A stretch of DNA of 23,863 bases from Escherichia coli (GTDB lineage: Bacteria > Pseudomonadota > Gammaproteobacteria > Enterobacterales > Enterobacteriaceae): NCBI RefSeq assembly GCF_003334255.1, contig NZ_QOWU01000065.1. One strand, given 5' to 3'. A program made the position numbers and the translations under genes. Of this stretch, positions 16,797 through 18,728 are shown piece after piece. Positions within the stretch are counted from its first letter, which is position 1; each line of letters begins with the position of its first letter. Below the pieces are notes generated by a model. The model made no database searches, was not told where the DNA came from, and saw only the letters and a program-made list of their open reading frames with translations.

Positions 16797-18728
16797 TTAA
16801 CGTGCCGGGCGGTATTCGCGCCAGTAGTCAATAAGCATGCGGTATTTTTGTTTCACCGTTGCGATGAGCTGTTCATCGTTAAGCTGGCCGCCTAACCACT
16901 GGCGTGACGGTTCGCCAAAGATGGTCCGGCCGACGGCGAAACCTTTCACCCAGGGCATATCCGCTGCTGCGGCGAATCCTGACTTCAACTCGCTTTCCGG
17001 TGCGTCCAGGCCAAGTATCAATATACCGCGACATTCAGGGTCATAATGCTCAATATGCTGGCTGATTTCTCGCCAACGATCTGGGCTTAACGGCGGCAGT
17101 TTCCACCAGTCCGGCAGGATCCCCAGTTGATAAAAACGTTCCACAATCTGAGGATAGTATTGCTCATTTTGGTCTGCCGTATCGCGCGGCAAGATGACTT
17201 CCAGCAGCAGATCGTGACCAGACTGGCAGCAGGCGCGGTAAACCTCGTCAATGAGCGCCTCTTGTTCAAGACGTACCGACTCTGCATCGAGTGGATGATA
17301 GAAGACCAGACATTTCACGACGTGCTCTTGCGGCCAGCTGACAAGCTGAGAGCCAATATCGCCATGTTCCAGCTTCAGCGGATACGAACCGGGCATCTCA
17401 ACCGGTCGGCCAATCCACCATCCCTGGCCGGTCACGTCGTTAAGCGCCTGCTGACCAAAGGTGGTATCGGCAAGGATGCCGCTATTATTCTGTAAACCGG
17501 CCTCAAGCGCCGCCTGACGCGCCCCTTCCAGCAGTAGCATCTTCAGAGGGGGGATCGCGGATTCACTGGCGCCGACTTCATTTGCGATATCCACCAGTTG
17601 CTTGCGATGGTCGAAGGCGAATACGCACAGCTCCGGCCAGTGCTGTTTACGGGTTGTGACCCGATGAAGGTGATTCAGCCGCGGGTCTTTGTCTGGCCGG
17701 GTGATGGATTGTTCACGCGCGAGGTAGTCGTCCAGCTCTTTTTTGGTTGGCATGGCGGGGGCACAACCGTGGCGCGATACCACTAACGCGCCGCAGGCGT
17801 TTGCATAACGGCAGGCTTGCTCCCAGCTTTCATCGTTCAGGTATCCCCGCAGCAGTCCTGACATAAAGGCATCGCCCGCGCCCAGAACGTTCAGAACGTC
17901 TACGCGAACGCCGCTATGTATCTTCACCTGCGACCAGTCATCGGCAATGTTGCCTTCAAAGACTGAGCAGCCCAGCGCGCCGCGTTTGCACACCAGTACG
18001 GCTTGGGTCAACTGACGGACGCGCCGCAGGGCGGTCAGCGTGTCGGTACTGCCGCCGGCGATATGGAATTCTTCTTCGGTCCCAACGATCAGATCGAAAT
18101 GGCGCAATACCTGCTGGAGCTGTTCGGTAACCTGTGATGAGGCGATGAAACGCGTTTCACCGTCTCCTAGCGACGTCAGGCCCCACAGTACGGGGCGGTA
18201 GTCGATATCCAGCACCCGCCGCAGCCCGTGTTTTTGCGCATACTCCAGTGCTTTAAGAACGGCGGCGCGCGTATTGGGGTGAGAAAGATGGGTACCAGTG
18301 ACGGCTAATGCGCGTGAAGAAGCGATGTAATCTTCGCGGATATCCTCGGGTGTTAGCGCCATGTCCGCGCAGTTATCGCGGTAGAAGATCAGAGGAAAGG
18401 TGTCCTGATCTTTAATGCCGAGGATCACCAGCGCGGTCAGACGATCGCGATCCGACAGCAGGCACTGCGTATCCACACCAACGCGGTTTAATTCTTCACG
18501 AACGAAACGTCCCATATGCTCATCGCCGACGCGGGCCAGCATAGCGGAACGTAATCCCTGAATGGCCGTGCCGTAGGCAACATTGCCTGACGATCCCCCT
18601 AAATATTTAGCGAAAGTCGTCATATCCTCCAGCCGCGACCCGATTTGTTGACCATACAAATCAACAGCGACTCGTCCCAGACAGATAACGTCCAGCGGCT
18701 TTTGCTCACTACTGACTGCTTTATTCAT
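16797..18728 (-). CDS. iolC: 5-dehydro-2-deoxygluconokinase IolC (pfkB ribokinase-like) fused to a C-terminal DUF2090-type domain
   Basis: The N-terminal ~330 aa align with Bacillus IolC (...DVICLGRVAVDL..., GAGD motif); the C-terminal ~300 aa form a second domain in one continuous 643-aa frame. Start placed at the second ATG (18726-18728), which has the better SD spacing. Confidence 0.85.
   Translation of the reverse strand: MNKAVSSEQKPLDVICLGRVAVDLYGQQIGSRLEDMTTFAKYLGGSSGNVAYGTAIQGLRSAMLARVGDEHMGRFVREELNRVGVDTQCLLSDRDRLTALVILGIKDQDTFPLIFYRDNCADMALTPEDIREDYIASSRALAVTGTHLSHPNTRAAVLKALEYAQKHGLRRVLDIDYRPVLWGLTSLGDGETRFIASSQVTEQLQQVLRHFDLIVGTEEEFHIAGGSTDTLTALRRVRQLTQAVLVCKRGALGCSVFEGNIADDWSQVKIHSGVRVDVLNVLGAGDAFMSGLLRGYLNDESWEQACRYANACGALVVSRHGCAPAMPTKKELDDYLAREQSITRPDKDPRLNHLHRVTTRKQHWPELCVFAFDHRKQLVDIANEVGASESAIPPLKMLLLEGARQAALEAGLQNNSGILADTTFGQQALNDVTGQGWWIGRPVEMPGSYPLKLEHGDIGSQLVSWPQEHVVKCLVFYHPLDAESVRLEQEALIDEVYRACCQSGHDLLLEVILPRDTADQNEQYYPQIVERFYQLGILPDWWKLPPLSPDRWREISQHIEHYDPECRGILILGLDAPESELKSGFAAAADMPWVKGFAVGRTIFGEPSRQWLGGQLNDEQLIATVKQKYRMLIDYWREYRPAR

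Follow-up and report, generated by a model that had tools for sequence, protein, structure and literature searches.

The iolC gene of an Escherichia coli myo-inositol island is a standard kinase-DUF2090 fusion and a candidate for both DKG phosphorylation and DKGP cleavage

The DNA analysed here, to which we will refer as the window, is a stretch of 23,863 nucleotides from Escherichia coli that carries a myo-inositol catabolism (iol) cluster. The other pathway steps, those of IolG, IolE, IolD, IolB and IolA, are all encoded within it, and iolC is surrounded by iolT1, iolT2, iolB, iolA, iolE, iolG1, iolI1, iolD and iolG2 in a cluster that does not contain any iolJ. This raises the question of which protein cleaves 2-deoxy-5-keto-D-gluconate 6-phosphate (DKGP) there, and of whether the iolC gene, which joins a PfkB-type kinase and a DUF2090 domain in a single ORF, is in any way unusual. 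We consider it very likely that this iolC is the ordinary one of GEI4417/4436, the Salmonella-type myo-inositol island that also occurs in a few ED1a-type E. coli strains, and that its product is both a kinase of 2-deoxy-5-keto-D-gluconate (DKG) and, through its DUF2090 domain, a class I DKGP aldolase. What we established is the architecture of the gene, its identity to reference genes, the fold of its product, the conservation of the catalytic residues and the gene context; it is from these that we infer the kinase and aldolase activities themselves, as well as the role of each residue.

The iolC coding sequence lies on the minus strand at 16797..18728, stop codon included, and encodes 643 amino acids from the ATG at 18728. 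A plus-strand gene at 16797-18728 was rejected, since the forward translation is riddled with stops, which places iolC on the minus strand. The ORF list also holds an in-frame ATG slightly upstream, at 18734, which gives a protein of 645 amino acids (16797..18734, minus strand). This first ATG is the start retained by RefSeq, and an AGGGGA motif is found 7 nt upstream of the second one (18728). The original prediction had read one continuous PfkB-DUF2090 frame of 643 amino acids from the sequence, and the Pfam domain search confirmed it on the minus strand, with PF00294 and PF09863 both matched over their full length. In particular, the N-terminal PfkB-family kinase domain, that of a 5-dehydro-2-deoxygluconokinase, covers residues 13-328 (17745..18692, minus strand; PF00294, E = 9e-42) and includes a GAGDAF motif at residues 283-288, the Asp286 codon of which (GAGD motif) is at 17871-17873 on the minus strand. 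The C-terminal DUF2090 domain, predicted to be a (beta/alpha)8 barrel and a DKGP aldolase of class I (Schiff-base), covers residues 331-639 (16812..17738, minus strand; PF09863, E = 3.8e-133) and takes up positions 1-309 of the 310 of the Pfam model. Two full-length model matches in the same frame are far beyond what chance would give. The fusion as a whole is itself modelled in NCBIfam (NF047869, 'myo_kin_aldol'), and IolC scores 885.5 bits against this family for a cut-off of 600, with residues 8-589 aligned to profile positions 3-585 of 586. It also scores 419.9 bits, for a cut-off of 300, against TIGR04382 (myo_inos_iolC_N), which from its name "iolC_N" models an N-terminal domain. The structural model of the full-length protein has a pLDDT of 94.6 and a pTM of 0.92, and both the kinase and the aldolase domains look intact in it.

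The comparison with reference genes is straightforward. The iolC ORF is found 100% identical in 7 of the 5426 complete E. coli genomes, and the RefSeq product name for the reference E. coli gene is that of a bifunctional kinase/aldolase. The protein corresponds to UniProt B7MQB2 (B7MQB2_ECO81, from E. coli ED1a), it is recorded in this exact form on 418 contigs, and it belongs to a 90%-identity cluster of 3380 members, whose representative is a Salmonella enterica protein. The likeness to the IolC of the S. enterica island GEI4417/4436 is very close: 642 of 645 amino acids are identical to those of a single 645-amino-acid Salmonella protein, 22 of 1938 nucleotides differ, iolC and iolD are likewise divergent, and the neighbours are the same. 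Both Salmonella loci that we examined carry a single gene of 645 amino acids for PfkB plus DUF2090, and Salmonella proteins of this length are also listed in the 3380-member cluster. For a broader view of the family, DUF2090-domain representatives were drawn from a library of 1.84 billion proteins and the best 150 were assessed; about 45 of them are full-length fusions of 590-690 amino acids, and the shorter ones are mostly fragments. A few split forms were inspected individually. In two of them, from a Thiolinea MAG (P0047) and from an E. coli Logan assembly (P0001), overlapping PfkB fragments abut the DUF2090 ORF, and these splits are probably frameshifts. Two others (P0152 and P0183) are fragments that run off contig ends, and only one of the split cases inspected (P0169) is a real stand-alone DUF2090 gene. 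The kinase-DUF2090 fusion is the normal state of iolC, and the iolC of the window is the standard fused form, which was already known and leaves the gene already explained.

This bears directly on the names iolC1 and iolC2. The original prediction had mentioned, with some doubt, that the two parts were listed as separate genes in some annotations of this island, in which case the single ORF would be noteworthy as the fused or intact form. This turned out to be right as far as nomenclature is concerned. The split naming presumably stems from the original annotation of Salmonella LT2, and it appears to be a legacy of it: this strain has two distinct tags, STM4429 and STM4430, of which STM4430 is called 5-dehydro-2-deoxygluconokinase. 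The Salmonella papers of the Fuchs lab use the names iolC1, iolD1 and iolD2, and iolD is likewise a single ORF in the window in spite of the iolD1/iolD2 pair. When the genome contigs were scanned for the LT2 locus, no match was obtained with an exact 24-mer, nor with a degenerate pattern of 44 nt that encodes FYQLGILPDWWKLPP. One could take these names and tags, together with the database entries that are split, to mean that an iolC1 kinase gene and an iolC2 DUF2090 gene are the normal condition, of which the single ORF would be an exceptional form, fused or repaired. We give next to no credence to this, as it is contradicted by the single ORF in 7 of 7 E. coli reference loci, in both Salmonella loci and in the listed 645-amino-acid Salmonella proteins, by the share of 590-690-amino-acid fusions among the best 150 family representatives, by the NCBIfam model, in which the family is the fusion itself, and by the nature of the inspected splits, which are overlapping PfkB fragments (frameshifts) or run-offs at contig ends. 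The two-gene reading is thus already refuted in practice. The claim that the single ORF was noteworthy has to be abandoned with it: an identical ORF in reference loci was what the original prediction itself had named as the sign that nothing is unusual, and this is what the E. coli loci show, next to the single 645-amino-acid ORFs of Salmonella.

If the fusion is normal, which gene encodes the aldolase? Positions 114-23863 of the window align at 99.87% identity with the reference locus of E. coli Ecol_AZ146. The genes annotated in the latter are iolT1, iolT2, iolB, iolA, reiD, iolE, iolG1, srfJ, iolI1, iolC, iolD and iolG2, along with two MFS transporters, two small hypothetical proteins and elements or remnants of IS200, IS91, IS110 and IS66. 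A separate aldolase, the class II IolJ type included, is absent from the RefSeq annotation of this near-identical locus; NCBIfam scans found no aldolase among the unnamed or ambiguous ORFs of the window, and there is none in the two Salmonella loci, whose genes are the same except for the additional iolI2 and iolH. The original prediction had seen no IolJ-type gene in the window, and had mentioned a class II aldolase gene elsewhere in the island as the other source of this step; these three results bear out the former, and no class II gene was found in the island. The alignment of the window with the Ecol_AZ146 locus, the identity of its IolC to the ED1a protein and the near-identity of its IolC to that of Salmonella make this DNA a copy, in E. 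coli, of the Salmonella-type myo-inositol island GEI4417/4436. The ED1a cluster has been described as nearly colinear with that of Salmonella, without iolI2 and iolH (Weber & Fuchs 2022, PMC9430895).

One can propose how a single IolC polypeptide would take inositol catabolism through two successive steps. The product of IolB (iolB, 5058-5867, minus strand) would be DKG, the substrate of the kinase, and the N-terminal PfkB domain would phosphorylate it at O6 with ATP. In the resulting DKGP, the keto group at C5 would adjoin a C6 that bears the phosphate, an arrangement locally identical to that of C2 and C1 in a ketohexose 1-phosphate. The C-terminal DUF2090 domain would then act as a class I, metal-independent aldolase: Lys543 would form a Schiff base (imine) with the C5 carbonyl of DKG-6-phosphate, and Glu510, Lys472 and Asp373 would take part in the proton transfers. 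The C3-C4 bond would be cut, giving dihydroxyacetone phosphate (DHAP) from C4-C6 and malonate semialdehyde from C1-C3, and IolA, which is encoded in the window (iolA, 5892-7397, minus strand), would convert the latter to acetyl-CoA and CO2. In such a scheme, the class I DUF2090 domain would stand in for the IolJ of Bacillus subtilis, a class II enzyme to which it is not homologous. A parallel case of replacement between class I and class II enzymes is that of LacD and GatY, which act on tagatose bisphosphate.

The fold of the DUF2090 domain is consistent with this role. With 54 homologues as input, AlphaFold2 models the C-terminal 317 residues at a pLDDT of 95.8 and a pTM of 0.93, as a TIM barrel made of eight strand-helix units. 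The top PDB matches of this model (Foldseek, probability 1.00) are all class I DHAP aldolases, namely 8tnf, the tagatose-1,6-bisphosphate aldolase LacD, the sulfofructose-phosphate aldolase YihT and the muscle FBP aldolase A. The best of them, 8tnf (E = 4e-12, TM about 0.7), is a sulfohexulose-1-phosphate aldolase, the molecule of which was deposited as a "DUF2090 domain-containing protein". At the level of the sequence, the link between DUF2090 and LacD is weak: a single-sequence phmmer search of the PDB finds LacD at E = 0.3 only, a trimmed DUF2090 profile reaches it at E about 9e-5, and hhalign aligns the LacD of a Carnobacterium plasmid with E = 8e-5 and a probability of 61%. The Pfam family of DeoC and LacD (PF01791) has no match in IolC at E <= 10, PF09863 and PF00294 being the only families reported. 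DUF2090 is a separate family, remotely related to DeoC/LacD.

The profile alignments (hmmsearch and hhalign) pair Asp373, Lys472 and Glu510 with Asp27, Lys125 and Glu163 of LacD, the last being the general acid/base of that enzyme. Asp373 (AFDHR, codon 17610..17612) is at the end of strand beta1, Lys472 (HVVKCL, codon 17313..17315) in strand beta4 and Glu510 (LLLEVI, codon 17199..17201) in strand beta5, all on the minus strand. The predicted Schiff-base lysine, Lys543 (PDWWKLPP, codon 17100..17102, minus strand), terminates strand beta6, in the domain model as in the full-length one. The hhalign alignment to LacD ends where Phe532 meets Phe194, and Lys543 and the LacD Lys205 (VDVLKVEVP), the Schiff-base lysine of that enzyme, are each 11 residues further on. 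As the profile alignment stops 11 residues short of Lys543, the correspondence of Lys543 to Lys205 rests on this spacing and on the beta6 strand of the model. These positions are strongly conserved: Lys472 and Glu510 are invariant in 45 of 45 homologues and Asp373 is present in 40 of 45; Lys543 is invariant in an alignment of 54 sequences. In another alignment, none of the four residues Asp373, Lys472, Glu510 and Lys543 varies among the 40 full-length fusions that are bona fide homologues. Arg601, from a GR motif in strand 8, is also invariant or nearly so among homologues.

The gene context of the family adds to this. The stand-alone DUF2090 gene mentioned above (P0169), which encodes 294 amino acids with the same motifs, is carried by a metagenomic contig between iolD and iolB, and adjoins iolG. 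Only 229 nt are available upstream of it, and no kinase half is possible there. The domain can therefore be encoded on its own in an iol cluster.

Price et al. 2022 (PLoS Genet, PMC9007349) had already proposed DUF2090 as the missing DKGP aldolase. In that work, 9 of the 11 bacteria with fitness data on myo-inositol had no IolJ, and their IolC-DUF2090 fusion was needed for growth on this substrate and specifically important there. LacD was also found to align significantly to the Pfam model of DUF2090, with its catalytic lysine and glutamate conserved, and inositol utilisers were enriched in DUF2090, those carrying it having no IolJ. The fusions of the nine fitness-profiled bacteria, such as BPHYT_RS13910 of Burkholderia phytofirmans, are like the IolC described here in their PfkB plus DUF2090 architecture and in their proposed function, and the conserved pair numbered Lys493/Glu531 in the fusion of that study corresponds to Lys472/Glu510 here; the C-terminal domain of our IolC is, however, only about 45-55% identical to typical proteobacterial representatives. 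As the two halves are fused, the published fitness data do not tell the contribution of the kinase from that of the aldolase.

We regard it as improbable that DUF2090 is not the DKGP aldolase and that a chromosomal enzyme, of class II (FbaA/GatY/KbaY) or class I (FbaB/YihT type), cleaves DKGP, the C-terminal domain then serving for oligomerisation, regulation or another substrate. The host chromosome does encode other aldolases, and several points speak for such an enzyme. The searchable literature yielded no enzyme assay with DKGP for any DUF2090 domain, nor other biochemical proof of this cleavage; recent papers from other authors still speak of a missing IolJ and invoke generic class II aldolases in its place; and a distant kinase-DUF2090 subfamily does not have the putative Schiff-base lysine, from which it follows that not every protein with this fold is an aldolase. 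On the other side, the four class I catalytic positions do not vary among bona fide IolC proteins, DUF2090 is associated with inositol use and the utilisers that carry it have no IolJ (PMC9007349), the stand-alone gene is located inside an iol operon, where it adjoins iolB, and the nearest structures all belong to aldolases that form DHAP, precisely the reaction needed here. Taken by itself, the idea of another substrate or a non-catalytic role for the C-terminal domain, with DKGP cleaved by a chromosomal aldolase, appears to us a shade less probable still. The assignment of the C-terminal domain as a DKGP aldolase, which the original prediction had put forward as the obvious candidate, is supported, in agreement with Price et al. 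(PMC9007349), with NF047869, with the RefSeq product name and with the fold and active-site checks, and it is both already published and already the standard annotation. DUF2090 even appears to be the commonest form of DKGP aldolase in bacteria, as a non-homologous replacement of IolJ. This role rests on genetics, homology and context, which holds for the whole family rather than for the sequence studied here in particular. For the locus itself, the significance goes little beyond a correct annotation: both the bifunctional IolC and the horizontally acquired inositol island that carries it were known.

Together, the IolC and IolJ of B. subtilis perform the same two consecutive reactions as those proposed for the IolC of the window, and the kinase domains are homologous (TIGR04382), but the B. 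subtilis aldolase is encoded by a separate gene and is a metal-dependent class II enzyme of the FBA type, whereas the candidate aldolase here is a fused class I TIM barrel. LacD (3mhf and 3kao), YihT (7ag1) and 8tnf share with the DUF2090 domain the (beta/alpha)8 fold (Foldseek E from 1e-9 to 4e-12, TM 0.63-0.70) and the constellation of Asp (beta1), Lys (beta4), Glu (beta5) and Lys (beta6); they cleave a ketose 1-phosphate-like end to give DHAP, and they often adjoin a PfkB kinase. They differ from it in that the identity is only 13-18%, in that DKGP bears a carboxylate at its other end, and in that the domain is here fused to its kinase. As a side observation, the distant kinase-DUF2090 subfamily that has no Schiff-base lysine is paralogous to this group, and the fold is not bound to one chemistry.

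The surroundings of iolC call for a few more remarks. The iolD gene, encoding the trihydroxycyclohexane-1,2-dione acylhydrolase, is on the plus strand (19139..21088) and divergent from iolC, and the two are separated by an AT-rich intergenic control region (18735..19138). In Salmonella, the equivalent fragments, P(iolC1) and P(iolD1), are bound by IolR, H-NS and CRP. In 18735..19138, the sigma-70-like matches are weak and no more numerous than in shuffled sequence. On the other side of the gene, the E. coli copy differs from the Salmonella island by an IS91 remnant located just downstream of iolC; the E. coli island also has two IS200 insertions elsewhere and does not carry iolI2 and iolH. This downstream insertion of 1.8 kb (14935..16748, minus strand) consists of an IS91-family transposase pseudogene and an ORF of 115 amino acids, and it is absent from the compared Salmonella locus, where the place that it occupies is a 60-nt spacer between iolC and an MFS gene. 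The iolC gene is left untouched by it, and functionally the E. coli iolC does not differ from that of Salmonella.

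The island is present in only 7 of the 5426 complete E. coli genomes, yet its DNA is about 99% identical to that of the Salmonella enterica island. This combination of rarity in the species and near identity to the Salmonella counterpart points to a recent horizontal transfer. The transferred segment would include srfJ (window 11580-12923), which encodes a glucosylceramidase resembling a Salmonella type III effector and is part of the island. Compared with the Salmonella island, the one in the window carries three extra insertions, each of them intergenic. Between iolT2 and iolB (4331-5007) lies an intact IS200/IS605 tnpA, and a second IS200/IS605 tnpA, this one with a frameshift, separates reiD from iolE (8715-9324). 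The third (14935-16748) consists of an IS91-family transposase pseudogene and a 115-aa ORF without any family match, and it lies in the 60-nt spacer that separates iolC from the downstream MFS gene. Because of this position, it probably uncouples the transporter from iolC transcription.

This island is not the only one of its kind in E. coli, as we also found another, divergent iol island type in the species (DNA match NZ_CP148318.1; the cluster of proteins P0001 and P0121; locus L004). Its DNA is about 82% identical to that of the window island, and the C-terminal domains of the two IolC proteins share 88% identity. The annotation of this second type follows that of the window island.

The DUF2090 domain also exists without a fused kinase. 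The 294-aa protein P0169 is the product of a true stand-alone DUF2090 gene (L009:1523-2407) inside an iol cluster, where iolD is divergent and is followed by DUF2090-iolB, with iolG downstream; this protein carries all the aldolase motifs. The contig L009, 4 kb in length, does not show where the IolC kinase of this organism is encoded.

The alignment of IolC homologues contains a subfamily of five distant kinase-DUF2090 fusions (P0233, P0256, P0275, P0283 and P0291; 28-34% identity), across which the active-site changes are coordinated. In these five proteins, Asp373 is replaced by Gly, Arg375 by His, the putative Schiff-base residue Lys543 by Gln or Leu (PDWWQ) and Asp286 of the kinase by Glu, with K396, D421, K472 and E510 being retained. 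Their NCBIfam scores are below the cut-offs, and no iol genes surround the fusions in the two contexts examined (loci L012 and L013). The members of this subfamily may catalyze another chemistry, or may be pseudo-enzymes.

The 90%-identity database cluster of the window IolC (P0135/P0136) also contains several 388-aa Salmonella proteins labeled as MFS transporters, which correspond to the product of the gene adjoining iolC. These transporters cannot be homologous to IolC, and their presence probably reflects an artefact in how the database groups its proteins. Searches of 100,044 species-representative genomes, among which Salmonella enterica is expected, returned 0 matches both for an exact 24-mer common to the E. 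coli and Salmonella iolC and for the fully degenerate pattern of FYQLGILPDWWKLPP.

Between iolA and reiD, a 100-aa ORF on the minus strand (7413-7715), annotated by RefSeq as a hypothetical protein, has no NCBIfam match. Finally, positions 1-113 of the window do not align to the otherwise near-identical reference locus; they belong to a region of the IS110 family that lies downstream of iolT1, and IS110 copies on plasmids match the window from base 1.
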